From Snowella sp. (GTDB taxonomy: Bacteria > Cyanobacteriota > Cyanobacteriia > Cyanobacteriales > Microcystaceae): 14,889 nt of DNA. Of this stretch, positions 395 through 14,889 are shown piece after piece (the first letter of the stretch is position 1; each line of letters starts with the position of its first letter). The DNA is taken from assembly GCA_035285545.1 (NCBI GenBank), contig JAYKGY010000023.1:1-14889 (forward strand). Reading direction: 5' to 3'. The notes under the pieces were generated by a model. That model ran no database searches, was not told where the DNA came from, and was given only the letters and a program-made list of their open reading frames with translations. The position numbers and the translations under genes were made by a program.

Positions 395-1321
395 TCACCA
401 ATATCTATCTGGATCGTCTAGGGCAAACATCTCCACTTCGATAAAACAATGACCATTGGCTGCTAACTCTTCTGCTTTTACGAAAATATCTTGTTCAATG
501 ATAGTGTCTAATTCTGCATCAGTGGTATAGGGAATCGTCAAAATATACTCATAGCCCTCTTTATCGAGTTTTTCCATACCAAAATGACTTAATACATTAG
601 ATTCAATGGCTTTCTGAACTAAAGGTTGGTTTTGAAGTAAGGGGTTATCATTGCCCACTTGCAACCACAACTTTACTTTCATCACCTTAGATTCAAAGGA
701 CGGTAGTATTTCTTCTGGCTGTATCGGCTCCGATGGTTTATCTGAAGACGATTTTGACGAAGCAGGTTTACTGTCGTAATTGAGGTATTTGTAATAGGTA
801 TTGCGAGAAATACCCACTATCTCACAGATTTCCTTAACACTTCTTTCGCGATCCTTACTCAAAGCCACCACTGCTTTTCGTTTCCGTTCATCAACTCCTT
901 TAGGACGGCCCCCCATTCTCCCTCTCGCCCGTGCTGCGGATAGTCCTGCATTGGTTCGTTCTCGAATAATATCCCGTTCAAACTCTGCTAATGATGCAAA
1001 TATATGAAAGATTAGTTTGCCTCCAGATGTTGTGGTATCAATGCTTTCTTGCAAACTTTTAAAACCAATGTCTTGTTCGATCAATTGTTTGACCGTTTCC
1101 ACTAAATGAGGCAGCGATCTCCCCAATCGATCCAACTTCCAAACCACCAAAGTATCACCAGCCCGACAATGCTCTAATGCCGCCGTCAAACCAGGGCGTT
1201 CCGTTTTTGCCCCACTTGCCTTATCCGTAAAGATTTTTTGACACCCTGCTGACTTCAACGCATCTTTTTGAAGATCCAACTTTTGTTCTGGCGTAGAAAC
1301 CCTGGCATACCCGATTAACAT
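395..1321 (-). CDS. Serine recombinase (resolvase/invertase family) with HTH and an extra ~100-aa C-terminal domain
   Basis: MLIGYARVST (catalytic Ser), VVWKLDRLGRS, LAEFERDIIRERTNAGL..ARARGR.GGRP and HTH SVKEICEIVGISRNTYYKY. The likely start is ATG 1321 rather than TTG 1360. Confidence 0.95.
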   Translation of the reverse strand: MLIGYARVSTPEQKLDLQKDALKSAGCQKIFTDKASGAKTERPGLTAALEHCRAGDTLVVWKLDRLGRSLPHLVETVKQLIEQDIGFKSLQESIDTTTSGGKLIFHIFASLAEFERDIIRERTNAGLSAARARGRMGGRPKGVDERKRKAVVALSKDRERSVKEICEIVGISRNTYYKYLNYDSKPASSKSSSDKPSEPIQPEEILPSFESKVMKVKLWLQVGNDNPLLQNQPLVQKAIESNVLSHFGMEKLDKEGYEYILTIPYTTDAELDTIIEQDIFVKAEELAANGHCFIEVEMFALDDPDRYW

Positions 1322-1365
1322 AGCCGTGACCTGAAACGATAAGTCAGTTATACCACGCAACTTAG

Positions 1366-1773: not shown

Positions 1774-1803
1774 TTGACAAGTATATTCCTATATAGCTAT
1801 ATT
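1774..1803 (+). promoter_or_regulatory. Sigma70-type promoter of psbA
   Basis: Perfect TTGACA (1774-1779), 18-nt spacer and TATATT (1798-1803). AGGA lies ~11 nt before ATG 1846. Confidence 0.7.
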
Positions 1804-1845: not shown

Positions 1846-2928
1846 ATGACAACTGCACATTTGGGGCTGCGCCAAGATAGCCTCTGGTCTCGCTTTTGTA
1901 ATTGGATTACCAGTACTTCTAACCGCATCTATATCGGCTGGTTTGGCGTATTGATGATTCCAACTCTCTTAACGGCAACAATCTGCTTCATCATTGCTTT
2001 TGTTGCGGCTCCCCCCGTTGACATCGATGGTATCAGAGAACCGATCGCGGGTTCTTTGCTCTCTGGCAATAACATTATTACGGCTGCGGTAGTTCCCAGT
2101 TCTAATGCCATTGGGTTACATTTTTATCCCATTTGGGAAGCGGCCAATTTAGATGAATGGCTATATAACGGCGGCCCTTACCAGTTAATTGTTTTTCATT
2201 TTTTACTGGGCATTTTTTGCTATATGGGTCGTCAGTGGGAACTTTCCTACCGTTTAGGAATGCGTCCTTGGATTTGTGTTGCTTACTCTGCCCCTGTTTC
2301 AGCTGCGACTGCGGTACTGCTCATCTATTCTTTAGGACAAGGCTCCTTCTCCGATGGGCTACCCTTGGGCATCAGTGGAACCTTTAATTTCATGTTCGTA
2401 CTCCAAGCGGAACACAATGTTTTAATGCATCCATTCCACATGATGGGAGTTGCAGGAGTGTTTGGTGGAGCTTTATTCTCTGCCATGCACGGTTCTTTGG
2501 TAACATCTTCCTTAATTCGCGAAACTACCGAAATTGAATCCCAAAATCAGGGTTACAAATTTGGGCAAGAGGAAGAAACCTATAATATTGTGGCTGCTCA
2601 TGGTTATTTTGGTCGCTTAATTTTCCAATATGCGTCATTTAACAATAGCCGTGCCTTACACTTTTTCTTAGGAGCTTGGCCCGTTGTGGGAATTTGGTTT
2701 GCGGCTTTAGGGGTTTCCTGCTTTGCTTTTAACCTCAATGGCTTTAACTTTAACCAATCGGTTTTGGATGCCCAAGGAACCCCGATTTCAACTTGGGCCG
2801 ATGTTATCAACCGCGCCAATATTGGGTTTGAAGTTATGCACGAGCGTAATGTTCATAATTTCCCTTTGGATTTAGCGTCTGGTGAAGTTGAAATGGTTGC
2901 AATGACGGCTCCTGATATTCATGGCTAA
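1846..2928 (+). CDS. psbA: Photosystem II D1 protein, microaerobic D1' (group 2) isoform
   Basis: 360-aa D1 with the D1' diagnostics A80, L158 and A286, plus S162, L172 and L186. It has Q130. D61, Y161, D170, E189, H190, H198, H215, H272, H332, E333, H337, D342 and A344 are all retained, and so is the C-terminal extension after A344. Confidence 0.98.
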
Positions 2929-2991
2929 TTATTGCTAGTTATTGGTTTGATTGACAACTTAACGGGTTCTCTTATTCGTCCTATCTGATAC

Positions 2992-3021
2992 GGCACTCTT
3001 AATCTAGAGGGTGCCATTTCT
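2992..3021 (+). terminator. Stem-loop 3' of psbA (weak terminator or mRNA stabiliser)
   Basis: GGCACTCT...AGGGTGCC (2992-3015) forms an 8-bp stem with one G-U pair. It is followed by only a short T tract (ATTTCT). Confidence 0.55.
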
Positions 3022-3085
3022 GCCTGTAGTAGATTGATTAAAAGTAAGTGAATAGCGGTAATTCTTATTTAATGAGGTAAACATA

Positions 3086-3676
3086 ATGTGGGATGAACGG
3101 TTTAATACCCCAGAGTATATTTATGGCACTGAACCCAATGATTTCCTCGTTTCTGTGGCTTCCCTGATTCCGTCAGGCAAGGTGTTGTGTCTAGCAGATG
3201 GCGAAGGACGCAATGGAACCTATCTGGCTTCTCTGGGTTATGAGGTTACGGCGGTAGATCAATCGGCTGTTGGATTAGCGAAAGCAGAGAAACTCGCTCA
3301 AGAGAAACAAGTAGAGATTGCAACTATTCGCGCTGATTTGGCAGATTATGTGATTGAAACGCAATTTTGGGATGGTATTGTTTCAATTTATTGCCATCTT
3401 CCTTCAAATTTGCGAGATCAGGTTTATCCACAAGTCGTTAACGGCTTGAAATCCAATGGTGTGTTAATCTTGGAAGGCTTTGCCCCTGAGCAACTCCAAT
3501 ACAACACAGGTGGCCCTAAAAATCTTGATATGTTACCTTCGCTTAATACCTTAAAACAAGAATTATCTGGTCTAAACTGGGAAGTTTCAAGAAATTTAGA
3601 GCGAGAGCTATTTGAAGGCCGCTATCACGATGGAAAAGCGGCTGTTATCCAATTGTTAGGGCGTAAACCTTTTTAA
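3086..3676 (+). CDS. Class I SAM-dependent methyltransferase (Slr1183-like, TehB-related)
   Basis: Motif I VLCLADGEGRN, followed by VTAVDQS and RADL. The N-terminus MWDERF...YGTEPNDFL closely resembles Synechocystis Slr1183 as I recall it. RBS GAGG is upstream. Confidence 0.92.
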   Translation: MWDERFNTPEYIYGTEPNDFLVSVASLIPSGKVLCLADGEGRNGTYLASLGYEVTAVDQSAVGLAKAEKLAQEKQVEIATIRADLADYVIETQFWDGIVSIYCHLPSNLRDQVYPQVVNGLKSNGVLILEGFAPEQLQYNTGGPKNLDMLPSLNTLKQELSGLNWEVSRNLERELFEGRYHDGKAAVIQLLGRKPF

Positions 3677-3724
3677 TCCAGATAAAACACTATCGATTTG
3701 CTTAATTTTTAAGGAAGCACGGCA

Positions 3725-4249
3725 ATGCGACTTAATCTGAAACTGATTCAATCTGCTGGGGTTAAACTGATTCTCTTGATCTGTCTTTTTATGTTTGTGA
3801 AAAATTCCCCCGCAATGGCTGCAACAACGAATTTATCTCCCTCTATTTTTTCAGAATTTTTACCTACCATGTCTCAAGATACTGCTAATTTAAAGACAAC
3901 GCTTACCCAATTTTTAACTTCTATTCCATCGGGGTTTTATACGCTGCCAACTATCGAAAAATTAAAAGATCAGTTGGAAAATCCACAAACAGTTTTAATT
4001 GATGTGCGAGAGCCTTCTGAATATCATTCAGGGCATATTCCCCAAGCCATTAATATTCCGCTACGGACTTTAACTCAAAAATTGGAAGCAATTCCTCGCG
4101 ATCGCCCAGTGGTGTTGTATTGTTCTGCGGGTTATCGGGCGGCAATGGGGGTGATGACCTTACACCTGTTGGGTTATGAAAATATTCAAGGTTTTCCACC
4201 GAGTTTTATGGGCTGGAAAAATGCGGGAGAGGCGATCGCTAAAGCCTGA
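3725..4249 (+). CDS. Single-domain rhodanese (sulfurtransferase) with predicted Sec signal peptide
   Basis: LIDVREPSEYHSGHIPQAINIP and active-site loop YCSAGYRA. The N-terminus has a basic region, a hydrophobic stretch and an AMA-A cleavage motif. Confidence 0.92.
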   Translation: MRLNLKLIQSAGVKLILLICLFMFVKNSPAMAATTNLSPSIFSEFLPTMSQDTANLKTTLTQFLTSIPSGFYTLPTIEKLKDQLENPQTVLIDVREPSEYHSGHIPQAINIPLRTLTQKLEAIPRDRPVVLYCSAGYRAAMGVMTLHLLGYENIQGFPPSFMGWKNAGEAIAKA

Positions 4250-4517
4250 CGATATTTTAATTGATTAGCTCAAAAAATTAGATTGTATTAAACTGTACCT
4301 ATTTAAACGATCTTTTTTGACTTTGCAATTTTCTCTGAGTCGCTAAGAACTATAAAACTATTTTTGATTTTCGCCACCTTTGATTAATCTTTAATTTTAA
4401 TTAAATTATTACTAATTTGACTCTTTGTCTCTTGATTAATTTAAAGAAAATTGTTAATTAAATGAGTGGTAATTATTTTAGGTGCTTTCAAATTTTTAGG
4501 TAATACTCAATACATTT

Positions 4518-5960
4518 ATGGATTTTTTTTCAGATACCGTTACACTATCACGGATTCAATTTGCTTTTACAGCGATCTTCCACATGCTTTGGCCGGTATT
4601 AACCACAGGAATGGCCATTTATTTAGTCATTATTGAAGGTTTATGGCTCAAAACTAAAAATATTGATTACTATCATCATGCCCGTTTTTGGTCAAAGCTC
4701 TATGTGCTAAATTTTGGGATTGGGGTGGCTTCGGGTTTGCCGATGGCCTTTCAATTTGGGTTAAATTGGGCCCCTTTTTCGGAATCCGTTGGCGATTTCT
4801 TCGGAACAGTTCTCGGTTTTGAGGGAACTATGGCTTTTATGCTGGAAGCGAGTTTTCTCGGCATTATGCTTTTTGGTTGGGAGCGGGTTCCGCCTTTAAT
4901 TCATTGGCTAGCAACAATTCTGGTGGCTTTTGGTGCAAATCTTTCAACTTTCTGGATTTTATCGGCTAATTCTTGGTTACAGACTCCAGCAGGGGGAATT
5001 TTTGTCGATGGGAAGTTTGTCGTTCAGGATTATTTCCAGGCGATCGCTAATCCCTTTATGCTGAAAAGTTTTCTGCACATGTTTTTTGCCACGTTGGAAA
5101 CTTCGTTATTTGTCATTGGCGGAATTAGTGCTTGGTATCTGATTAATAAGCGGGATACGGACTTTTTTACGCGATCGCTGAAAGTGGTGTTGGTGTTAAT
5201 TATTGCGATCGCACCGTTGCAACTTTTTATCGGCCATCTCAGTGCGGAACAGGTTTATCACTATCAGCCCACCAAATTAGCGGCAATGGAAGCCCAATGG
5301 GAAACGGTTCCTGCCAATCAACCCGCCGATTGGAGTTTAATTGCTGCACCCAATGTAAAAGAAGAAAAAAATGATTGGGAAATCAAAATTCCAGGACTTT
5401 TAAGTTATCTCCTTGAAGTCAAACCAGCCCTCAATGAACCCATTAAGGGATTAAAGGAATGGGCTACTGAGGATCGTCCCCATTTAGTGGGATTAGTTTA
5501 TTATTCCTTCCGCATAATGATTGCCATTGGTCTTTTCTTTGCTGCTTTAATGGCAATGACGGTAATCCAATGGATTCGGGGAAAATTGAACGCTCAAACC
5601 ATTAGTCAACAGACTTGGCTACTCAGAAGTTGGATTTTTGCGGCTCCTTTAGGCTATTTAGCGGTAGAAACGGGCTGGATTGTACGTTGTGTCGGACGGC
5701 AACCATGGATCGTTTATGGGGAATTGCGTACCGTTGATTCTGCTTCCAATTTACCAGCGGGTGAAGTCTTATTTTCGTTGCTTGGTTTAATGACCCTCTA
5801 CAGCATTTTGATTGTGGCAGCCCTTTACTTTGGTAGCCGCATTGTTCGCCAAGGCCCGAATCGCCAATTACCGCTACCTCAACCGATTAAACTACCCGCA
5901 TTAAACATCGAACCTGCTCAACATGAACGCGATCGCCGCCCCACAGAAGCCCAACAATAA
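4518..5960 (+). CDS. cydA: Cytochrome bd quinol oxidase subunit I (short Q-loop)
   Basis: SRIQFAFTAIFHMLWP, FEGTMAFMLEASF, LHMFFA, QPTKLAAME, AVETGW and GRQPW. Confidence 0.97.
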   Translation: MDFFSDTVTLSRIQFAFTAIFHMLWPVLTTGMAIYLVIIEGLWLKTKNIDYYHHARFWSKLYVLNFGIGVASGLPMAFQFGLNWAPFSESVGDFFGTVLGFEGTMAFMLEASFLGIMLFGWERVPPLIHWLATILVAFGANLSTFWILSANSWLQTPAGGIFVDGKFVVQDYFQAIANPFMLKSFLHMFFATLETSLFVIGGISAWYLINKRDTDFFTRSLKVVLVLIIAIAPLQLFIGHLSAEQVYHYQPTKLAAMEAQWETVPANQPADWSLIAAPNVKEEKNDWEIKIPGLLSYLLEVKPALNEPIKGLKEWATEDRPHLVGLVYYSFRIMIAIGLFFAALMAMTVIQWIRGKLNAQTISQQTWLLRSWIFAAPLGYLAVETGWIVRCVGRQPWIVYGELRTVDSASNLPAGEVLFSLLGLMTLYSILIVAALYFGSRIVRQGPNRQLPLPQPIKLPALNIEPAQHERDRRPTEAQQ

Positions 5961-5977
5961 AAAGAGAACATGACAAT

Positions 5978-6985
5978 ATGGAACCCTTACAACCGCTACA
6001 ACAGTTTTTACCCCAAGTTTGGTTTTGCATCTTAGGACTCTTTCTCTTTCTCTATGTCCTCTTAGATGGCTTTGATCTCGGTGTGGGAATTCTTTCCCTG
6101 ACCGCATCCAGTGAACAACGCCGCAGCATTTTAATGACCAGTTTGGGAAATGTCTGGGATGCAAACGAAACCTGGCTGGTTTTGATGGGCGGCTCCTTAT
6201 TCGGTGCCTTTCCCCTTGCCTATGCCACCATTTTAAATGCCCTTTATTTGCCCGCCGTTATTATGGTTGTGGGATTAATTTTAAGAGCCGTTTCCTTTGA
6301 ATTTCGGGAAAATGCTAATCGTAAGTTAATTTGGAACGTTGCTTTCGGGGTCGGCAGTTTTCTCGCCGCTTTAGGTCAAGGATTTGCATTGGGCAGTGTT
6401 TTTGAAGGAATTACCGTTGATGCTCAAGGACACTTTGCAGGGGGCATTTGGGATTGGTTAACCTGGCGGTCTGTTATTGTTGCTTTAACTTTAATTCAAG
6501 GTTATGTCCTCATCGGCTCAACCTATTTAATTTTAAAAACCACAGGGGAATTACAAGAAACCCACTATAAGACGGCAACACTCGCTGCTTGGACAACTTT
6601 GGTCGGCGCAATCTTTATTACCATTACTACGCCAATTATGTCGGAAGAAGCCCGCACTCAATTGTTTACGGCTCCTTTAATTTATGTTTTTGGACTCATC
6701 CCAGTTTTAGGATTACTGTTAAGTGGACTACTGATTAAAAGCTTAAATCGTCGAGAAGAAAATACGCCACTGATTTGGACATTTTCGTTATTTACCCTGT
6801 CTTTTGTTGGATTAGGTTTCGTTATTTTTCCCAATATTATTCCACCCAGCATTACTATTTATGAAGCCGCTGCTGCACCAAGCTCTCTAGTTTTTATGCT
6901 AACTTTTATTGGCTTTTTGATTCCTGTTTTGTTATTTTATAATATTTATAATTATTTAGTTTTTCGAGGAAAAATTACTGACTAA
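5978..6985 (+). CDS. cydB: Cytochrome bd quinol oxidase subunit II
   Basis: LDGFDLGVG, VWDANETWLV, AFP.AY and LRAVSFEFR. Starts 17 nt after cydA. Confidence 0.97.
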   Translation: MEPLQPLQQFLPQVWFCILGLFLFLYVLLDGFDLGVGILSLTASSEQRRSILMTSLGNVWDANETWLVLMGGSLFGAFPLAYATILNALYLPAVIMVVGLILRAVSFEFRENANRKLIWNVAFGVGSFLAALGQGFALGSVFEGITVDAQGHFAGGIWDWLTWRSVIVALTLIQGYVLIGSTYLILKTTGELQETHYKTATLAAWTTLVGAIFITITTPIMSEEARTQLFTAPLIYVFGLIPVLGLLLSGLLIKSLNRREENTPLIWTFSLFTLSFVGLGFVIFPNIIPPSITIYEAAAAPSSLVFMLTFIGFLIPVLLFYNIYNYLVFRGKITD

Positions 6986-7006
6986 TATTCTAATTTAATT
7001 TATCCT

Positions 7007-7055
7007 AAAAAGTTCTTTGATAAATAAAAATTCCATTATTTTTAAAGAACTTTTT
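7007..7055. terminator. Bidirectional hairpin/terminator between convergent clusters
   Basis: AAAAAGTTCTTT (7007-7018) pairs with AAAGAACTTTTT (7044-7055), and the stem extends inward via AATAA/TTATT. A/T tracts lie on both sides. Confidence 0.7.
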
Positions 7056-7094
7056 GATTTTTTAACAATGCCAAAAATAGAAATTCGATAGAAG

Positions 7095-9782
7095 TTAGAT
7101 CAAAAGTTGAAAAAATATAACTGTAAAGCCAATCATTAGCAATAGGTGAGGCAAGTTACTCAACAGCGATCGCTGGGTAATGCGTAACAAAGGATAGGGG
7201 CTAAAGACCAACGCTGACAGGAGCGTAACCCCTTGGAGAAATTGAGCAACATCTAGACTCCAGGTTAAACTGGGTAAGACAATAAGATTAAAGCCGAAAG
7301 AATAAGCGGTAACAGGAAGAATACGGCCCGCTTCAGTGATTGCCGCAGGAATGTAATAGGCTAAATTGGCTGCTAGGGTCAACGGGAGATAGATATAGAT
7401 AACCGTCAGATAATTGGGTTGTTGGGGGTCAAAATAACAGGCGATCACGTGGGTTAAATAGGTTAAAATCGCGGGGATGCTTAACAAAATCAGTGTAATG
7501 GGAATACTAATCAGTAAATGCTCCGAATCTAGGCTAATGGAATCGAATCCGAAAGCTCTGAGTATTTTCTGGGATTGGTGCATAAATACACCACCCAAGA
7601 GCAACAGTAATAACGCAATTTCTGCCCAAAAACCTTGATGATTATCCAATAAATCCGAAGCGGGAAAGCGAAGATTGAGTTGGGCGGAACGATTGGGGCA
7701 AGCTTTGAGGCAGGTCATACAGAACATACAATCCCGATTATCCTGCAACTGATTTGGATGGGAATAGAGAGGGCAACCATCTGTTGCTTGACCTTCATTG
7801 GGGAGGGCATCGGGAAAGCTGATCGGGGTAGCGGCACTGCCTTTATAACAACCAAACGTATTACATTGGCTGCCACAGACCTGTTGAGTAGAGCGCAACT
7901 CGATCATGGAAAGCTTGGCAAACATTCCATTCATGCCCCCAATTGGACAAAGATAACGACACCACAGCCGCCGTTCATAAATTTGGCTAAAAATGACTGC
8001 TCCTGCTGTGATCACCAACAATAGCCAAGCAGATAAATAGGCATGATGAGGTAAATCCCAGAGTTTTTCCCAGAGATAAATAGCGACAAATCCTGCAAAG
8101 AGAAACCACGCTCCCCAACGGTTCAGCGATCGCGTATTCCAGGTAAGTTGCTGACGGGGAAATAGCCACAGAGAAAGCCTCCGCAACCATTCCGCCGTAA
8201 TCATAAAGGGGCAAACCGCACACCAAAGCCGCCCGACAAAGGCAAACCAAAATAAATAACCGGGCCACCACCAGGCCCAAAAAAGATTTAAGGTGACGCT
8301 ATGTTCTCGATCCTGTGGGCCGATAAATCCCAATATAGTGACAGGCACAAAAATCACCATCATGATCAGCCAAAGTCCCTCTGGATACCAACGGCTGAGG
8401 AAAAATTGCCTTAAACCAGGCACATGAGTTAATAAATCTAAACGAAACGCATTTTTGGTTGATTGCACAGACCATAATGCCTGTTCGGGGATAAACTCAT
8501 AGCCCAACGGGGTCATCATGACGGCTCGGTGAAGGATTTCCGCCAATTCCGCAATATTGCCAGGATAGTCATAACTGATTAAACGACGGAGATCGGACTG
8601 ATCCAGTTGTAGAAGGGGACGATTTTGGGCTTGGCAAAACTGAGTGAGAAAATAACGGGCAAAATTGGGAATATCGGCTTTCCGTTGGCTGAGAGTCTGG
8701 AGTTTAATGGTCAGCGCGTTAATATCGGGTAATGATACTTTATTAGGAGAAGTGAGGATTAATCGAACCCAGGCGTAAATGGGTTGAGGCGGTTCCGTTG
8801 CTAAATCCAAAGGGTCAATAATGCCGTGATTGGGCAGAATAAACCCCGTTTTCAAATAATGGGCTAAACGGGCGCGATCGCCGTCTCCGAGAACTTGCAC
8901 ATTAGTTAACAGTAAGGTTCCCCGTTCCAACAGTTCAAAAATACCGACTTGACCATTGACTCGTCCAAACAAAAGATCTGTGTCTAACCGACCATCGCTG
9001 GATCTAGGCAACTTCGCACAATCCAATTCAGCAAAGGGGTTATCCGCCAATTCAGAACAGGCATGAATTAGACCCGCTAAAAAGGTTTTTCCTGTTCCTG
9101 GTTGAGCCTGAAAAATAACGGGTTTTACGCTCCCAGCCGCTTGTTGAACGTATTCGGCTAACTTTTGAGTAGCTTTACTATTACCCAAAATGGTTGTTTT
9201 TGTCGGAACCGCATGAAGGTAAGCCTGTAAGCCTTGAATACGGTGTTGTTCTTGGGCAAGACGTTCAATATAGTGATTTAAGTCTGCGGCTAATTGGCTA
9301 TTCAATAAATGTTCAATTTCAGGATGGTCTTGCATTAATTGTTGGAACTGAGCGATCGCCAAAAAGCCAATTTCACTATCGGTTAACGCGATCGCTTGAT
9401 TTTGATAGGTTCCCTTGTCTAAATTGGTCATCCAGGAGACATAACCAAACAAATCCCCCGCTCCTCGATGACGAATCAAAGATTTCCCTAATGCAGAGAG
9501 TCGATAAATCTCTACTTCACCGCTTTTAATGAGATATAAACCTATAATCGGCTGATTAGCTCTAAAAATGGGGGTTCCTGCTTTTACTGTCAATACATGC
9601 AGCGATCGCGCTAAATCTTGTAATGCCGTTTCCGATAATTGTCCCCAAAGTCGATGGGATTTTAACCATTGCTTAGATTCTGCAAGTTCGTTTTCCGTTA
9701 GGTTAGGTAACTCCTCCAATCCCGCCCCCAAGGGAAAGTTATCGCTCCGTAATGCAGAGATTGAATCCAGCCGAGAAACCAT
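7095..9782 (-). CDS. cNMP-binding domain + degenerate sigma54-activator-like AAA+ domain + polytopic membrane 4Fe-4S domain (NapH/RdxA-like)
   Basis: cNMP fold (LYLIKSGEVEI, GAGDLFG), Walker A AQPGTGKT, LSQRKADIP and YDYPGNIAEL. These are followed by many TM segments with GRLWCAVCP, WCRYLCP and CMFCMTCLKACP. Confidence 0.85.
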   Translation of the reverse strand: MVSRLDSISALRSDNFPLGAGLEELPNLTENELAESKQWLKSHRLWGQLSETALQDLARSLHVLTVKAGTPIFRANQPIIGLYLIKSGEVEIYRLSALGKSLIRHRGAGDLFGYVSWMTNLDKGTYQNQAIALTDSEIGFLAIAQFQQLMQDHPEIEHLLNSQLAADLNHYIERLAQEQHRIQGLQAYLHAVPTKTTILGNSKATQKLAEYVQQAAGSVKPVIFQAQPGTGKTFLAGLIHACSELADNPFAELDCAKLPRSSDGRLDTDLLFGRVNGQVGIFELLERGTLLLTNVQVLGDGDRARLAHYLKTGFILPNHGIIDPLDLATEPPQPIYAWVRLILTSPNKVSLPDINALTIKLQTLSQRKADIPNFARYFLTQFCQAQNRPLLQLDQSDLRRLISYDYPGNIAELAEILHRAVMMTPLGYEFIPEQALWSVQSTKNAFRLDLLTHVPGLRQFFLSRWYPEGLWLIMMVIFVPVTILGFIGPQDREHSVTLNLFWAWWWPGYLFWFAFVGRLWCAVCPFMITAEWLRRLSLWLFPRQQLTWNTRSLNRWGAWFLFAGFVAIYLWEKLWDLPHHAYLSAWLLLVITAGAVIFSQIYERRLWCRYLCPIGGMNGMFAKLSMIELRSTQQVCGSQCNTFGCYKGSAATPISFPDALPNEGQATDGCPLYSHPNQLQDNRDCMFCMTCLKACPNRSAQLNLRFPASDLLDNHQGFWAEIALLLLLLGGVFMHQSQKILRAFGFDSISLDSEHLLISIPITLILLSIPAILTYLTHVIACYFDPQQPNYLTVIYIYLPLTLAANLAYYIPAAITEAGRILPVTAYSFGFNLIVLPSLTWSLDVAQFLQGVTLLSALVFSPYPLLRITQRSLLSNLPHLLLMIGFTVIFFQLLI

Positions 9783-9888
9783 AGCCCATCCTAGAATTCT
9801 TTAATTGAATTTTATCGTTGGCTTTAACCGCTTGATTTCAATATTTATTAAGATTTTGGGGCTTTTCTCCAATCAGGTTGAAATAGGT

Positions 9889-10755
9889 TTATCGCGTTAA
9901 CTTTTTAAGAACCGATTGAGTAGAAACCAGATGTTTATCTAGCCCTAATTTGTGGGGTTTAATCCCCAACGCTAAGCCGATTAACTCGGTGATATAAAGA
10001 ATCGGTAGGGAATAGCTGACATTATATTTCTTTTCAATATCAGGTTGCCGTAATTCCAAATTGGTTGAACAAAGCGGGCAAGCTAAAACGATGCAATCGG
10101 CTCCCAAAGCTTGGGCTTCATCTAAAAGTTTTTTGGTTAACTCATAGGCCACATTTTCTTGAGGAATTAAAATTGGCCCGCCACAGCATTTGGTTTTAGA
10201 GCGGAAATCGAGAACTTCTGCGCCACAAGCCTTTGCTAAATTATCCATTGCCATCGGTCGAACAGGAGAGTCCCAACCCGTTAAATCTTCAGGACGAGTC
10301 AGCAAACAGCCGTAATAGCAGGCCACTTTTAAACCCGTCAGAGGTCGTTTCACATATTTGGTAATGTTAATATCATTGGCTAAAACATCCACCACACTCC
10401 TTACTTTAATCGGGTTATTTTGGACTTTAATTCCCATTTCTTCTAGGATTGGCGTAATTTTAGACTTTTCAATTGGATCTTCTAAGGCTCGATTGGCTTT
10501 GGCGGATTTATTGTAACAACCTGAACAGGAAGCCAGCAGATCTTGACTTTGGGCTTGGGCAAGAACCACATTTCTAGCGGCTAAGGCCATACTCAATTCA
10601 TGATTAACCCCCCCTGCAATTGATCCGCCACAACACGACCAATTTTTTAGTTCTTCGAGTTCAAATCCCAAAGCTTGCATAACGGCTTTGGTGGACAGAT
10701 CAAATTCTTTCGCAGACGTATGAAGGCTACAGCCAGGATAATAAGAATATTTCAT
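9889..10755 (-). CDS. hdrB: Heterodisulfide reductase subunit B-like (HdrB2), two intact CCG domains
   Basis: YYPGC...SCCGG...CSGC and YYGC...KCCGG...CPLC, i.e. the CX31-39CCX35-36CXXC-type motif occurs twice. Confidence 0.93.
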   Translation of the reverse strand: MKYSYYPGCSLHTSAKEFDLSTKAVMQALGFELEELKNWSCCGGSIAGGVNHELSMALAARNVVLAQAQSQDLLASCSGCYNKSAKANRALEDPIEKSKITPILEEMGIKVQNNPIKVRSVVDVLANDINITKYVKRPLTGLKVACYYGCLLTRPEDLTGWDSPVRPMAMDNLAKACGAEVLDFRSKTKCCGGPILIPQENVAYELTKKLLDEAQALGADCIVLACPLCSTNLELRQPDIEKKYNVSYSLPILYITELIGLALGIKPHKLGLDKHLVSTQSVLKKLTR

Positions 10756-10840
10756 AATGTTATACCTATTTTAATCAATCTTAAATAATGGGGCATTGCT
10801 AGATTCAGACATGACCCCTTGGTTTCGTTAATGGTAATAG

Positions 10841-10919
10841 CCCCCTAAATCCCCCAATTCTGGGGGACTTTCGAGCATTGTGATCGCTGAGTTTCCAAAA
10901 AAGTTGGAGGATTGGAGAG
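10841..10919. repeat. Cyanobacterial REP-like palindromic repeat (one intact unit, one decayed unit)
   Basis: CCCCCTAAATCCCCCAATTCTGGGGGACTTT (10841-10871) contains a TCCCCCA/TGGGGGA hairpin. A degenerate partner TTTCCAAAAAAGTTGGAGGATTGGAGAG lies at 10892-10919. Confidence 0.7.
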
Positions 10920-10934
10920 ATAATATCGAGAATG

Positions 10935-10973
10935 TTATTTGCATAGAAGTCAAATTAATTTGGTATGCAATAA
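10935..10973. other. Hairpin immediately after the hdrC2 stop
   Basis: TTATTTGCATA...TATGCAATAA arms surround the palindrome CAAATTAATTTG. Confidence 0.45.
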
Positions 10974-11573
10974 TTAGGGCGTTTTAACTTTTGATAAAGC
11001 GTCACGGAAAGCTTGGGGATTTTTAACTTGAGCGGGAAGGGGGGATAATTTTCCTTTCAAGGCTAATTGAATACCGAGGGGAGCTTGTTCCATGACTGCT
11101 TTTAAGCCGCCGTATTCTCGGATTAGTTCAGGCTCAAAAAGAATGCCCCATTTTTGAATAATATTGACGAAAATTTGATTAAATCGGGTGGAGTCGTTTT
11201 CAATGCCTTCTCGAATCGCGATTGCTTTCACTGCTTCAATCACTTCCGAAGGACGAACCCCACGAGGACAACGGGAGGTGCAAGTATGGCAAGAACTACA
11301 GAGCCAAAGGGTATTGCTTTTAATAACCGTTTCCCATTCTCCCCGTTGCACCATCAACACTAAACTTCTGGGAGTCAGATCCATGCGATCTACATTCGGG
11401 CAACCCCCGCTACAGGTTCCACACTGCATACAAGCGGCAATTTTAGCGGCCTCGCCTCCCTCTGCTTTAACCCGTTCTTGAAAGGCGTGATTCATTCGAT
11501 CTCCATCCACTTGGCGATCGCGTTTAATCCCGAAGAAACATTTCTTTTTCGTTTTAGTTAATTGTGCGGTCAT
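10974..11573 (-). CDS. hdrC: Heterodisulfide reductase subunit C-like (HdrC2), 2x[4Fe-4S]
   Basis: CMQCGTCSGGCP and LWLCSSCHTCTSRCPRGV. RBS AGGAG is upstream. Confidence 0.93.
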   Translation of the reverse strand: MTAQLTKTKKKCFFGIKRDRQVDGDRMNHAFQERVKAEGGEAAKIAACMQCGTCSGGCPNVDRMDLTPRSLVLMVQRGEWETVIKSNTLWLCSSCHTCTSRCPRGVRPSEVIEAVKAIAIREGIENDSTRFNQIFVNIIQKWGILFEPELIREYGGLKAVMEQAPLGIQLALKGKLSPLPAQVKNPQAFRDALSKVKTP

Positions 11574-11612
11574 GCCGTCATCTCCTATTAAATTAGGTTA
11601 AATATTGAGAAT

Positions 11613-12689
11613 CTATTTTTCTAAGAGCGCGACAGAACCCGAACTCACTGATTGACCGTTATAGCTAATAAAAACAGAGCTAGGAGCTAAAAAGGCAGCA
11701 ATTTCGGCAGCAGCAGAGCGGCCATCGGTGATCGATTCCACAATCGCTTTGGGGCCTGTGGCGGTTCCTGCGAGGAAAATTCCTGGACGAGGTGAAGCAT
11801 TATTGGAATATTGTTGATGGGCAGTCGTATAGAAGCGATCGCAACCAATTTCTAACCCTGCGACTTGAGCCATTTCCGTATTGCCTTCCATTCCCACCAT
11901 CAAAACCAACATATCGACGGTTAATTTCATGGGTTTTGCAATCAAGGTATCTTCCAGACGGAGTAACAAACTGCCCTGACCATCATTTTTCTCATTGGCT
12001 TCTGACAATCGACCCCGAATAAATTGAATGCCGTAGGTTTCCTGCGCTGTGCGATAAAGTTCTTCGTAACCCCGACCGAAAACCCGAATATCCATATAAA
12101 GGCAGTAAATATCGCAATCAGGAATTAATTTTTTGATTTCAATGGCATCTTTAATGGTATTGGTGCAACAGACACGAGAACAGTAATAATTGCCCACTTT
12201 TTGGTCACGGGAGCCGACACAGTGAATCATGGCAATTTTTTTCGGAACCTTGCCCTGTACCGTCGTTAATCGTCCTTCCTTGAGCCGTAAATCCAGTTCA
12301 ACCGCCGTAATACAATTATCGTAAACGCCATAACCGTATTCTTCTTTTAAGGTTGCATCAAAGTGATAAAATCCGGTGGTCATTAGAATAGCTGCTGCTT
12401 CCAAGGTTTCCCCATTGGACAGACTAACTTGAAACTGGGGAGAAGTTCCCGCGATCGCGCTGACGGTTGTTTCGGTTAAAACTCTGGTTCCGTTCAATTC
12501 TCGTTGTAATTGATTGACAATCTCTGCGCCCTCGGTGAAATCGGGAAAGACTTTAAACCAGTTTTTGACATGACCGCCTAAAGCCCTTTCTTTTTCTATC
12601 AGCGTCACCTGAAAACCTAAGTGGGAAAGTTTTGCAGAAGCTGACATTCCCGCAACGCCTCCACCAATAACAACAATCTGTTTATTCAT
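11613..12689 (-). CDS. hdrA: Short HdrA-like FAD/[4Fe-4S] subunit (358 aa, no ferredoxin domains)
   Basis: VIGGGVAG Rossmann motif, EEYGYG, HdrA signature CVGSRD...YCSRVCC, YMDIR.FG..YE and GIFLAGTATGPK. Confidence 0.93.
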   Translation of the reverse strand: MNKQIVVIGGGVAGMSASAKLSHLGFQVTLIEKERALGGHVKNWFKVFPDFTEGAEIVNQLQRELNGTRVLTETTVSAIAGTSPQFQVSLSNGETLEAAAILMTTGFYHFDATLKEEYGYGVYDNCITAVELDLRLKEGRLTTVQGKVPKKIAMIHCVGSRDQKVGNYYCSRVCCTNTIKDAIEIKKLIPDCDIYCLYMDIRVFGRGYEELYRTAQETYGIQFIRGRLSEANEKNDGQGSLLLRLEDTLIAKPMKLTVDMLVLMVGMEGNTEMAQVAGLEIGCDRFYTTAHQQYSNNASPRPGIFLAGTATGPKAIVESITDGRSAAAEIAAFLAPSSVFISYNGQSVSSGSVALLEK

Positions 12690-12738
12690 AGCTTGCTCAT
12701 CCGAATAAAAGGTTAATAAGGTTAAGTGTTAGAAAAAT

Positions 12739-13785
12739 TTAAAAAGGCCGACGGCGTTCTTCAAAGGTTTTTGAGCGATCGTAGGGAATTCCAATTTGAT
12801 CTAATAACGGTTCAATCGCGATCGCTTTGGCATTCAAACCACAATCTTTGAAGGGGTCGTAACCGAGCAGCAGACCCGTTAATTGGGCATAATCCAACAC
12901 ACAAACCCCAAAATCTTCTTCTAACACTTCCCGAATCGTTCCTTGTTCTGCATCCAAGAAAACCGTACAGCCTGGACAGTTGGTTAAAATCAATTTACAG
13001 TCGGGATGGGCTTCTTTGAGACTCTTCATTTTTTTATAAACGGAGCCTGCGGTATAGTCTCGATTTTCGGGAAAAGCACATTGACGAAAACCCATACCGC
13101 AACAATGCCGCCGTTCAGGATAATCAACGATCTCAGCCCCAAACGCCTGTAACATTCCCACTAAAATCTGGGGGAACTCTGCGCCGCCCATTGCTTCTTC
13201 AGGGAAAATTTTGGCGTAGTGACAGCCCACATGATCGGTTGCTTTAATGCCTTTCAAACTATATTTGGCTTTAGCCGCTAACTTATGGCGATTGGCAAAA
13301 AAGACATCGGATGCATGAACTACCGAAGGACGACCTTCTAAGACATGGGGAACCCAAAATTCACGCCCTGTTGTTTCTTTTAAGGTTTTGGCAGTATATT
13401 CTCGCAATTCGGGTTCTTCTTCCCAAAGCTTCATCATTTCCGTGTAATTAGCGAAAGACGTTACACAAAAAGAAAATAATTTATCGACTCCCAGTTCGTA
13501 GTGAGCAAGGGAAAAATTGCGGGCAGCCACCACCATTTGGGTTTCAATATTGGTGACATCACCGTGATAACCGATCGCGCCGCAGGAGGTATGGCCTGGG
13601 GCTTCTCGTAAATCGATGCCTAAATCATTTTTGAGAATTTTGTAGGCAATGCCTTCGGTATAAGGAGCCGCACTTTGCAAAAAACAACTGCGAAAACAGC
13701 CCCACACTTTTCCATCGGGATCATCAATACTGGGAACAGCTTTTTGGTGTTTTTCCCATGCTTTTACTTTTCCTTCAACTTTCAT
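12739..13785 (-). CDS. hdrB: HdrB1-like subunit with a modified first CCG domain
   Basis: First domain RSC...TSCGAIGYH...FCVTSFANY is altered. Second domain HVGCHY...HCCGMGF...NCPGC is intact. RBS GAGGA is upstream. Confidence 0.9.
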   Translation of the reverse strand: MKVEGKVKAWEKHQKAVPSIDDPDGKVWGCFRSCFLQSAAPYTEGIAYKILKNDLGIDLREAPGHTSCGAIGYHGDVTNIETQMVVAARNFSLAHYELGVDKLFSFCVTSFANYTEMMKLWEEEPELREYTAKTLKETTGREFWVPHVLEGRPSVVHASDVFFANRHKLAAKAKYSLKGIKATDHVGCHYAKIFPEEAMGGAEFPQILVGMLQAFGAEIVDYPERRHCCGMGFRQCAFPENRDYTAGSVYKKMKSLKEAHPDCKLILTNCPGCTVFLDAEQGTIREVLEEDFGVCVLDYAQLTGLLLGYDPFKDCGLNAKAIAIEPLLDQIGIPYDRSKTFEERRRPF

Positions 13786-13924
13786 GCTTTTTATTTCCTC
13801 AAGGGTATTTATAAAAAATTGATGGTTAATTTTGGCTATAGTTTTTTAAAAAGGCGAAGACTGATCAACGAATTAACGGTTGACCTAAATAGGATTCAAA
13901 ATAAATTTAATTGGGTAAATTTGA

Positions 13925-14626
13925 TTACTCTGGCAGAGAATAATTCCTGCTATCTGCGGTTTCTAACCAATTTTGCCAGTATTTTTCTACTTCTTCCTTG
14001 CTGCCTAATTTCTTTTCCATTCCCTTTTCTACTGCTTCCATTAACGCGATCGCGCCCGTTTTTTCGTAGATGGTTCGTAATTCTTCTAAGTCTTTTTCAG
14101 GAATTTGCCGATGGGAACCCGCACTATTTTCCAAATCCATCGGTACGCCCCACCATTCCCGCATTTCTGCCATGTGTTCGTAATAGTATTCCCAGTTTTC
14201 GCCTAATTCGGGGAAATGGGCAGGAGAAATATTTTGAGCAACTAATGTATAACCCCGTTTAAGCATATTTTCGCCAAAAACGCGCTTAGCAAACAGTTGT
14301 TGTCGGCCTTTTTCCGATTCAGCAAAATAACCATGTTTGACCGACAGACGACGCAGAGCCAGAATCACCGATGCCGCACTATTCCCCCTCGGACAACGGG
14401 TTTTACAAGAAAAACATTGCCCACAATACCAAATTTGCTCGGATTTGAGCAGGGCTTCAATCTGTTCATCATCTTCAGACTGCACGGTATTCATCACTTC
14501 ACGGGGCGAATACTCGTAAAATTCGGCAGCAGGACAAACGGCAGTACAAACCCCACAGTTGAGGCAGGCGTTCATCCCATGTTCATACAAAATGTCTTGC
14601 TTGAGTTCGTTGAATAATTGACCCAT
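13925..14626 (-). CDS. hdrC: HdrC1-like subunit, 2x[4Fe-4S]
   Basis: CLNCGVCTAVCP and IWYCGQCFSCKTRCPRGN. The start is placed at ATG 14626 (MGQLF) because GGGGGT lies 7 nt upstream. Confidence 0.92.
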   Translation of the reverse strand: MGQLFNELKQDILYEHGMNACLNCGVCTAVCPAAEFYEYSPREVMNTVQSEDDEQIEALLKSEQIWYCGQCFSCKTRCPRGNSAASVILALRRLSVKHGYFAESEKGRQQLFAKRVFGENMLKRGYTLVAQNISPAHFPELGENWEYYYEHMAEMREWWGVPMDLENSAGSHRQIPEKDLEELRTIYEKTGAIALMEAVEKGMEKKLGSKEEVEKYWQNWLETADSRNYSLPE

Positions 14627-14767
14627 TGAATTACCCCCGATTGCTTTATCTATCATATAACCAGATAGTAAAATAGTTATCAATAGGGATAAATACTCAA
14701 TTTTTAGCTTAGGGGAAAATTTAAAAGCTTTGTCAAAGTCGCGATCGCCAACTAACTGTTCGACTAA

Positions 14768-14889
14768 GAGCCTATCCGAAAAGTCAATAGGAACGAAATT
14801 GGTACATTTTAGCGAACGCTAACTTCACTAGCTAGGTGGACGGTTATTTCCCTAGCAAATGCTCGGATAACTATCTCTCAAATGAGTCC
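14768..14889 (+). mobile_element. Probable left end of a second IS5-family element; IRL GAGCCTATCCGAAAA, preceded by TAA (14765-14767)
   Basis: 14/15 match to the reverse complement of 106-120. The sequence beyond differs from the reverse complement of 1-105, so this is the opposite end rather than an inverted copy. An ATG at 14882 could be a transposase start. Confidence 0.7.

Follow-up and report, generated by a model that had tools for sequence, protein, structure and literature searches.

Contig JAYKGY010000023.1 of a Snowella sp. draft genome (assembly GCA_035285545.1), analysed here over its full 14,889 nucleotides and referred to below as the window, carries two gene clusters that face each other across a single hairpin, raising the question of whether they form one functional module or two. 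Cluster A comprises a psbA gene for the D1' form of the photosystem II protein D1, a methyltransferase, a rhodanese and the cytochrome bd genes cydAB; cluster B comprises a five-gene hdr operon followed by the gene for an 895-aa membrane protein. A preliminary description of this DNA had interpreted both clusters as a single module for oxic/anoxic-sulfidic transitions. Based on comparisons with other cyanobacterial genomes, we consider it somewhat more probable that the clusters are separately built units of a widely shared cyanobacterial low-O2/sulfide gene pool, and not a fixed module. Open reading frame (ORF) calling and family scans recovered every gene named in the preliminary description in its place, as well as the convergent layout, with no other ORF of at least 60 aa with a family match between the two clusters:

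1846 to 2928, forward strand: psbA, encoding a D1' (group 3, microaerobic) D1 (TIGR01151, 737.8 bits)
3086 to 3676, forward strand: S-adenosylmethionine-dependent methyltransferase (MT), TehB-like, Slr1183 orthologue (TehB and Methyltransf_25 matches)
3725 to 4249, forward strand: single-domain rhodanese (PF00581, E 1.3e-20)
4518 to 6985, forward strand: cytochrome bd quinol oxidase, cydA at 4518-5960 (PF01654, E 3.5e-155) and cydB at 5978-6985 (PF02322, E 2.8e-89)
7007 to 7055, no strand assigned: A+T-rich hairpin with A and T runs on its flanks (17-nt arms, 88% complementary)
7095 to 9782, reverse strand: 895-aa membrane protein with cyclic-nucleotide-binding, sigma-54-type AAA+ and NapH-like 4Fe-4S parts (family and structure matches)
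9889 to 10755, reverse strand: hdrB2 (PF02754 in two stretches; CCG at residues 41 and 190, CxxC at 77 and 226)
10974 to 11573, reverse strand: hdrC2 (Fer4_8; TIGR03290, E 3.6e-24)
11613 to 12689, reverse strand: short hdrA, 358 aa (FAD; one Cys cluster motif at residue 157)
12739 to 13785, reverse strand: hdrB1 (PF02754 in one stretch; sole CCG at residue 228)
13925 to 14626, reverse strand: hdrC1 (likely ATG start at 14626; the open frame extends to a TTG at 14683)

The evidence for two units comes from the distribution of these genes elsewhere. We compared 137 loci, comprising 80 around relatives of the 895-aa protein (below, sensor loci; the best 80 of 579 stretches confirmed in cyanobacterial genomes, median locus 15.8 kb), 15 hdr, 14 MT, 20 cydA and 8 further D1' loci, and found the exact juxtaposition of the window in none of them. 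What survives of the one-module proposal is that the gene families of both clusters repeatedly co-localise elsewhere; their exact pairing does not recur. The suggested coupling of cytochrome bd to Hdr is not supported, given that cydAB are usually stand-alone and that cydA was found near hdr in 1 of 15 loci. Co-occurrence across genomes is likewise at chance level, with hdrB1 and MT sharing 2 genomes against 1.3 expected, and the presence of cydA in 13 of 15 hdrB1-bearing genomes is close to its background within the same taxonomic order (91 of 129 genomes, 71%). Five genomes of the same genus showed no DNA similarity to hdr, MT, cydAB or D1', and the 895-aa gene has a close counterpart in only one of the five. 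In the same-genus genome G218, a protein search did not find hdrB1, MT or cydA.

Examination of cluster A revealed a close match to a known gene arrangement. The psbA product carries A80, L158 and A286, corresponding to the three changes that distinguish D1' from standard D1 in the available part of the source (Gly80Ala, Phe158Leu, Thr286Ala; PMC2776144), which bears out its naming as D1' in the preliminary description. The genome's own standard-D1 fragment carries T286. All seven residues that we take to be the Mn4CaO5 ligands (D170, E189, H332, E333, H337, D342 and A344) are retained in the window's D1'. Orthologues of this psbA, 90-94% identical to that of the window, were identified at 11 loci in 10 of 88 genomes of the family (3 of the 11 loci on contigs shorter than 5 kb), and constitute a class apart within the family, the next best psbA being at most 87% identical. 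Partners at the 11 loci include MT (5), rhodanese (6) and a PetC-like Rieske protein (8), and the common order is psbA-MT-rhodanese-YgaP-like-PetC. In the window psbA, the Slr1183-type MT and rhodanese genes are co-directional, and loci L151-L153 and L250 show the same order. Residues 1-194 of the MT align to residues 1-194 of PDB 2KW5 ('Slr1183 protein', Synechocystis) with 308.5 bits. The rhodanese begins with a hydrophobic stretch that resembles a signal sequence, and its active-site loop, at residue 133, reads CSAGYR; it shares 47-60% identity with its counterparts in related D1' clusters.

According to the consulted portion of one report, a psbA1-rhodanese-petC cluster is induced under microoxia in Acaryochloris (AM1_0448-0451; PMC5295598), and the same portion cites Summerfield 2008 for the same induction in Synechocystis, where slr1181 is psbA1, slr1184 the rhodanese and slr1185 petC. 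The link of psbA, MT and rhodanese to low O2 is thus upheld by way of orthology to these published clusters, and on sequence grounds cluster A is an orthologue of the low-O2-induced Synechocystis psbA1 cluster. The resemblance ends behind the rhodanese, where the 268-bp gap at 4250-4517 contains no ORF for a YgaP-like protein or PetC2 and cydAB begins at the usual place of petC2. A search of the window's genome with a petC2 query did not find a petC2-type gene, the best PetC match being 49% identical. By orthology, cluster A would respond to O2 scarcity by supplying a microaerobic D1 together with a quinol oxidase of high affinity, the oxidase occupying the position usually taken by the alternative Rieske protein.

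Both subunits of the cytochrome bd oxidase are full length (PF01654 1-418 of 418; PF02322 1-302 of 302). Oxidases of the bd type tolerate sulfide. They also have high affinity for O2, as stated in the portion seen of PMC8651085. Of 400 other cyanobacterial genomes sampled, 105 carry cydA, and at the 20 closest cydAB loci none of the genes considered here was found within ~9 kb (0 of 20); nor did cydAB occur beside D1' at any of the 11 related D1' loci. The window's genome possesses a second cydAB copy on contig C69, 67-70% identical to the island copy. Compared with the single cydA of same-family genomes, the island cydA is 75-78% identical and the C69 copy 64-68% identical.

Cluster B presents a different set of relationships. 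Residues 3-329 of HdrA align to 2-335 of PDB 6TJR (sHdrA of Hyphomicrobium denitrificans; E 2.1e-62), and the CCG motifs are intact, with both in HdrB2 and one in HdrB1. Relatives of HdrC1 begin to align at about residue 17-20, and position 14626, at which the preliminary description ended, is an internal ATG of hdrC1. Among the 400 other sampled genomes, hdrB1 was found in 15, where it is 81-91% identical to the window copy and patchily distributed across nine families; all five hdr genes are present at 14 of the 15 loci. At one locus (L111, 7165-8349) we observed a shortened cluster with a 394-aa ORF that combines an HdrA-like N-terminal part and a CCG domain, hdrC2 and hdrB2 being missing. 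In Picosynechococcus sp. PCC 7003 the hdr cluster, followed by an FAD-dependent oxidoreductase, resides on a mobilizable 253-kb plasmid.

The flanks of the 15 hdr loci were surveyed with Pfam for 109 of 166 listed ORFs, those omitted being mostly short, farthest from hdr or already identified by tblastn. An SQR-sized Pyr_redox_2 protein adjoins hdr in 8 of 15 loci, and a trio of persulfide-dioxygenase-like (PDO-like) metallo-beta-lactamase, rhodanese-YgaP fusion and TauE in 2 of 15; Lactamase_B with rhodanese was found at one more locus and TauE alone at another. Also identified in the flanks were PetC-like (4/15) and Tll0287-like (2/15) proteins, with MT, cydA and the 895-aa gene at 1 of 15 loci each. 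These sqr-like, PDO-like, rhodanese and TauE neighbours, along with a common operator described below, support the sulfide link proposed for the hdr operon. Conversely, LbpA/GCV_H had no match among the 109 scanned flank ORFs of the 15 loci, and the DsrE and TusA families had none among these ORFs or the proteins of the window; rhodaneses stand in the place of DsrE3/TusA at the hdr clusters, and the sole GCV_H-family gene of the window's genome lies on another contig. A canonical sHdr system is ruled out by the missing LbpA, DsrE and TusA. As GCV_H/LbpA, DsrE and TusA are absent from the flanks, cluster B is an LbpA-less relative of the sulfur-oxidising sHdr complex, akin to but outside the sHdr-LbpA group.

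Given that sqr-like, PDO-like, rhodanese and TauE genes adjoin hdr elsewhere, our prediction is that cluster B processes SQR-derived sulfane sulfur, and we infer that the Hdr-like complex would oxidise protein-bound sulfane sulfur to sulfite. Published accounts of cyanobacterial hdr genes include a five-gene cluster in Cyanobacterium sp. DS4, interpreted by methanogen analogy in the excerpt at hand (PMC12060301), and a listing of hdrA2B2C2 for an Antarctic Phormidium (PMC8002359). In those parts of the sHdr literature that were accessible, cyanobacteria appear in reference lists only.

Cluster B is also connected to sulfide genes by a putative operator. A palindrome scan of hdrC1 upstream regions yielded TATAAC-N6-GTTATA. 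Of 18 other loci, 12 show this palindrome ahead of hdrC1 with at least 11 of 12 half-site letters matching, and these loci contain no such match elsewhere; coding controls gave 0 of 18 at the same threshold. The sensor, hdr and MT loci, 1.78 Mb in total, gave 26 hits, of which 24 are no more than 450 bp ahead of one of the associated genes, namely hdrC1, PDO-like, SQR-like, NMO, YgaP-PetC, rhodanese-YgaP, ArsR, NifX-like, 895-aa and psbA genes (the last in L032 and L023). With sites at hdr alone excluded, 11 of 11 sensor-locus hits fall within the 7.6% of bases that qualify, and in control cydA loci (378 kb) the one palindrome hit stands beside none of these genes. The half-site score is simple and unspecific genome-wide, since a threshold of 11/12 returned 12 hits in the genome and 23-28 in its shuffled versions. 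In locus L150 the palindrome stands 66 bp before an ArsR gene, suggesting an autoregulated ArsR-type repressor, and the palindrome is likely to be bound by a repressor of this type. We found no paper describing the palindrome or the hdr-sqr-PDO linkage, the operator search having covered titles and the beginnings of abstracts among the papers listed, without supplements. Two features of the window bear on this operator:

14656 to 14673, no strand assigned: degenerate palindrome copy, 10/12 half-site letters, ~30 bp upstream of hdrC1
1774 to 1803, forward strand: sigma-70-like promoter candidate for psbA (11 of 12 hexamer letters match)

The first is the sole site in the window matching at 10/12 or better, a level with a chance rate of 0.004-0.006 per 100 bp, and only cluster B would appear to bear a credible operator copy here. 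Its upstream TATAAC-N6-GTTATA, held in common with sulfide genes, would place cluster B under likely ArsR-type control. A comparison among the window's own promoter regions gave, as common repeats, only HIP1-type and A+T-rich chance matches. Elsewhere in the same genome, an 11/12 site lies on contig C125 between a DUF2214 gene and an Ald_deCOase-sqr pair, and contig C34 harbours an ArsR-PDO-rhodanese/TauE-DUF3122 cluster. The C125 locus (1-1938, L215) has its sqr cut by the contig end, and the second half was not found in the assembly; upstream of sqr, the DUF2214 gene is divergent and the Ald_deCOase gene encodes an aldehyde-deformylating oxygenase paralogue. Members of both the DUF2214 and Ald_deCOase families are repeatedly neighbours of the 895-aa gene elsewhere.

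The 895-aa protein was described as an Fe-S sensor. Its AAA+ domain aligns to ZraR, NifA and PspF and retains the Walker A motif GTGKT, with no GAFTGA motif and with TN in place of the Walker B DE pair (LLLTNV). Pfam revealed no helix-turn-helix (HTH) or other DNA-binding domain in the protein, and a search of the genome, which is 95% complete, gave no match to sigma-54 (PF04552). A sigma-54 enhancer-binding activator is ruled out by the lack of GAFTGA, of the Walker B DE pair, of a DNA-binding domain and of a genomic sigma-54. The NapH-like part has six hydrophobic stretches within residues 466-891, one CxxCxxCxxxCP motif and a NapH/MauN match. With the features of sigma-54 activators missing, "sensor" is a label that we apply by inference, and the protein may have such a role.

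The neighbourhoods of the 80 sensor loci tie the 895-aa gene to both sets of families. A CysK-like pyridoxal-phosphate (PLP) enzyme directly downstream is its commonest neighbour (35 of 80 loci) and is absent from the window. Further neighbours are rhodanese (12), DUF3122 (12), SQR-like (10), PetC-like (9), ArsR (7) and Tll0287-like (6) genes, followed by psbA (5), MT (5), a full hdr cluster (3) and cydAB (2), with at least one family besides the PLP enzyme in 26 of 80 loci. The 895-aa gene lies directly behind hdrB2 in the window and in L019, L029 and L112. Where psbA stands beside it in L021, L023, L068 (divergent) and L044, several Mn ligands are missing.

Several side observations were made on these loci. 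The psbA products of L021, L023, L068 and L044 carry E170, S/D/R189, A/S333 and V342, and correspond to 'rogue' D1, not D1'. The CysK-like enzyme is ~317 aa long (e.g. L010, 12665-13618), with a median gap of 43 bp to the 895-aa gene, and the closest copy in the window's genome, on contig C150, is 56% identical. A paralogue of the 895-aa protein, 38.5% identical, is encoded on contig C12 (21748-24264) beside ATP synthase beta/epsilon genes, and a class at 38-40% identity accounts for 14 of 80 loci. Near the 895-aa gene, 4 of 80 loci possess an ICMT/PEMT-family membrane methyltransferase (e.g. L008, 5126-5638). For this family and the Slr1183-type enzyme, methylation of a small sulfur compound is a guess; a literature search linking TehB to hydrogen sulfide and methanethiol found nothing.

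A number of observations weigh against reading the clusters as separate units. Many comparison contigs are short, making the counts of missing neighbours lower bounds. Related genomes are not independent, and their kinship causes the binomial figures for the operator to be overstated; moreover, the motif was discovered on hdrC1 upstreams, leaving only the non-hdr hits as a test of it. A 9/12 site at 1784-1801 lies 44 bp before psbA in the window, overlapping the -10 hexamer of the promoter candidate, and sites of this quality arise by chance at 0.05-0.10 per 100 bp. Among the 8 further family loci, 3 have a site of 10-11/12 at a distance of 62-91 bp ahead of D1' psbA, and a 12/12 site stands 78 bp before psbA in locus L032. 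Finally, a cydAB-MT-sensor arrangement occurs in loci L035 and L041, cydAB lie near MT and a PDO-like gene in locus L163, and cydA lies ~4 kb from hdr in locus L107, from a same-family genome.

In a broader reading, a single ArsR-type persulfide-sensor regulon would act at the palindrome in many cyanobacteria. Such a regulon would embrace sqr, PDO, rhodaneses, the LbpA-less Hdr and the alternative Rieske protein and D1, and both clusters of the window would belong to it; the substitution of bd for petC2 would then rewire the outlet of the plastoquinone pool and allow electrons from SQR to be burnt on trace O2 by an oxidase that tolerates sulfide. We regard this as an unlikely reading, though one to keep in view.

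The proposal of the preliminary description is narrower, namely one co-regulated module for oxic/anoxic-sulfidic transitions that swaps D1, shields the Fe-S clusters of Hdr by means of bd and processes sulfur. It draws on the recurrence of all families of both clusters together in other cyanobacteria, on the operator found elsewhere ahead of hdrC1, of sqr-like and PDO-like genes, of petC2 and of some psbA genes, on the weak operator-like sites at psbA (9/12) and hdrC1 (10/12) in the window, and on the frequency of cydA among hdrB1-bearing genomes. Furthermore, the forms that Phormidium expressed most strongly in a low-O2 sulfidic mat were group 3 psbA and a bd oxidase, as reported in the passage of PMC8651085 to which we had access. 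Set against these points, the exact pairing recurs in none of the 137 loci, cydAB are unlinked in 20 of 20 closest and 11 of 11 D1' loci, the cydA frequency is near its background, the sharing of hdrB1 and MT is close to expectation and the psbA site is at chance level. A single module of this kind is, in our view, rather unlikely.

Whether the juxtaposition might instead be a by-product of repeat-mediated rearrangement, with the clusters functionally tied only as accessory genes, depends in part on the genomic setting. The window is the entire contig C23 of a 4.16-Mb draft genome (151 contigs, 95% complete), and its outer features and internal repeat are as follows:

1 to 124, no strand assigned: end of an IS-like, high-copy repeat unit of ~1036 bp that closes the contig; 100% identical copies end more than 20 other contigs
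395 to 1360, reverse strand: serine recombinase with resolvase domain, HTH and long C-terminal tail (PF00239, E 2.1e-47; HTH_7/HTH_23)
10838 to 10872, no strand assigned: short dispersed repeat of ~35 nt in the hdrC2-hdrB2 spacer, with dozens of copies per same-genus genome
14765 to 14889, no strand assigned: opposite end of the same ~1036-bp repeat unit, high-copy

The ~1036-bp repeat, present in ~50 copies at ~50x island depth, flanks the stretch on both sides, and inverted repeat arms occur at 106-137 and at 14751-14782. This unit, by which the assembly is broken up, is probably an insertion sequence. A 1036-base Logan contig of depth 901.7 links 14767-14889 of the window to 1-121, the depth of the island being 16-20. 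A circular element is ruled out, as the joint from 14889 to 1 is explained by collapse of the ~50-copy repeat. The convergent junction is not a misjoin, being crossed by an 8608-base Logan contig of run X1 that spans 2262-10869 with 0 differences to the window; X1 is possibly the source sample of the window, which would make this an independent assembly and not an independent sample. Runs X4, X5 and X6 hold small shares only, with 90-99% likeness to portions of the sensor and hdr genes; ~2983-7455 is uncovered in these three runs, which says nothing on absence or habitat.

The hdrC2-hdrB2 spacer (10756-10973) is 218 bp long in the window, the range in other cyanobacteria being 0-35 bp. Read depth peaks at the dispersed repeat within it in each of the four runs, and a contig of X6 connects 10756 straight to 10975, bypassing the spacer, which looks like a small insertion within the operon. 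At the meeting point of the two clusters, cydB and the 895-aa gene are 109 bp apart, and in this gap lies the A+T-rich hairpin, a possible two-way terminator; its fold z-score is -2.92, with 3 of 200 shuffles folding equally well, and it was not listed by a terminator scan owing to its few G-C pairs. The serine recombinase gene lies outside the range covered by the preliminary description (1846 to 14626) and was found beside none of the comparison sensor, hdr and MT loci; ~125 residues of its tail after the HTH have no family match.

Rearrangement as the sole explanation is favoured by the repeat copies at both contig ends, the resolvase gene inside the stretch, the five same-genus genomes showing no DNA similarity to hdr, MT, cydAB or D1', the mobilizable hdr plasmid of PCC 7003 and the patchy distribution of a highly similar hdrB1. 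The composition of the stretch is native, however: its GC content is 42.0% where the genome has 42.1%, its HIP1 density is typical, and 53% of genome windows have a larger tetranucleotide distance; a recently acquired foreign island is ruled out by these same measures. In addition, the families of both sides belong to one recurrent neighbourhood network, which makes a random pairing less likely than a pairing within the pool, and we consider mere rearrangement quite unlikely. Under the favoured reading of separately built units from a shared pool, the two would have been joined tail to tail in this lineage, between two copies of the high-copy repeat.

That the Hdr-like complex does not act on sulfur at all, being instead a thiol/disulfide or electron-bifurcating module passing electrons to the membrane via the NapH-like 895-aa protein, is very doubtful: the lack of LbpA, DsrE and TusA genes in the flanks, the single GcvH-family gene of the genome, the 895-aa gene behind hdrB2 at the four loci named above and the methanogen Hdr analogy in the accessible text of PMC12060301 speak for it, but only 3 of the 80 loci of the 895-aa protein include hdr and only 1 of the 15 hdr loci includes this protein, the CysK-like enzyme is a commoner partner (35 of 80), and hdr flanks and operator point to sulfide genes.

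The locus touches on the open question of how photosystem II, cytochrome b6f and respiration are switched upon exposure to sulfide or loss of O2, which is of relevance to microbial mats and Proterozoic oceans. The window alone adds little, and it is the comparison that yields three testable handles: an hdr operon travelling with sulfide-oxidation genes and without the lipoate carrier of known sHdr; a palindromic operator common to hdr, sqr-like, PDO-like, petC2 and some psbA genes; and a natural variant with cytochrome bd in petC2's place behind D1'.

Comparison with known systems places each part of the window. Sigma-54 enhancer-binding proteins share the AAA+ fold match of the 895-aa protein but possess the GAFTGA motif, DE pair and DNA-binding domain that it lacks, and NapH-type quinol dehydrogenase subunits match its membrane Fe-S part. 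The type I sHdr-LbpA system of Hyphomicrobium denitrificans has the same hdrC1-B1-A-C2-B2 order and short HdrA as the window, and its neighbourhood of sulfur-oxidation genes with an ArsR-type regulator, as given in the part of PMC12423496 available, resembles that around cyanobacterial hdr. The window differs in its cyanobacterial host, in having no lbpA, dsrE3, tusA or lipoate-assembly genes in its own sequence or the 15 flanks, and in having no gene between hdrA and hdrC2. A 'hyp' gene in that position is typical of type I sHdr.

A link between alternative D1 and sulfide genes is already in print, with 14 psbA genes within five genes of sqr and group 2/3 psbA near sqr/arsR (Grim and Dick 2016, PMC5061849, from the portion consulted). 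That paper contains 0 occurrences of hdr, rhodanese or cytochrome bd, and in the window's genome sqr lies on another contig (C125). The cyanobacterial cydAB operon has full-length subunits as in the window and is usually stand-alone (20 of 20 closest loci), whereas here it is appended to the D1' cluster in a genome with a second, more divergent copy (C69). Like Synechocystis PCC 6803 (slr1181-slr1185) and Acaryochloris marina (AM1_0448-0451), the window has the D1' psbA, Slr1183-type MT and rhodanese on one strand, its psbA being 90-91% identical to that of same-family genomes with the Synechocystis-type cluster; it differs in carrying cydAB instead of the YgaP-like (DUF2892) small membrane gene and petC2. 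Already published, then, are D1' with its induction at low O2, the cluster of psbA1, rhodanese and petC, the proximity of group 2/3 psbA to sqr/arsR and five-gene hdr clusters in a few cyanobacteria. Particular to the window, as far as these comparisons extend, are the replacement of petC2 by cydAB and the tail-to-tail pairing of this cluster with hdr.

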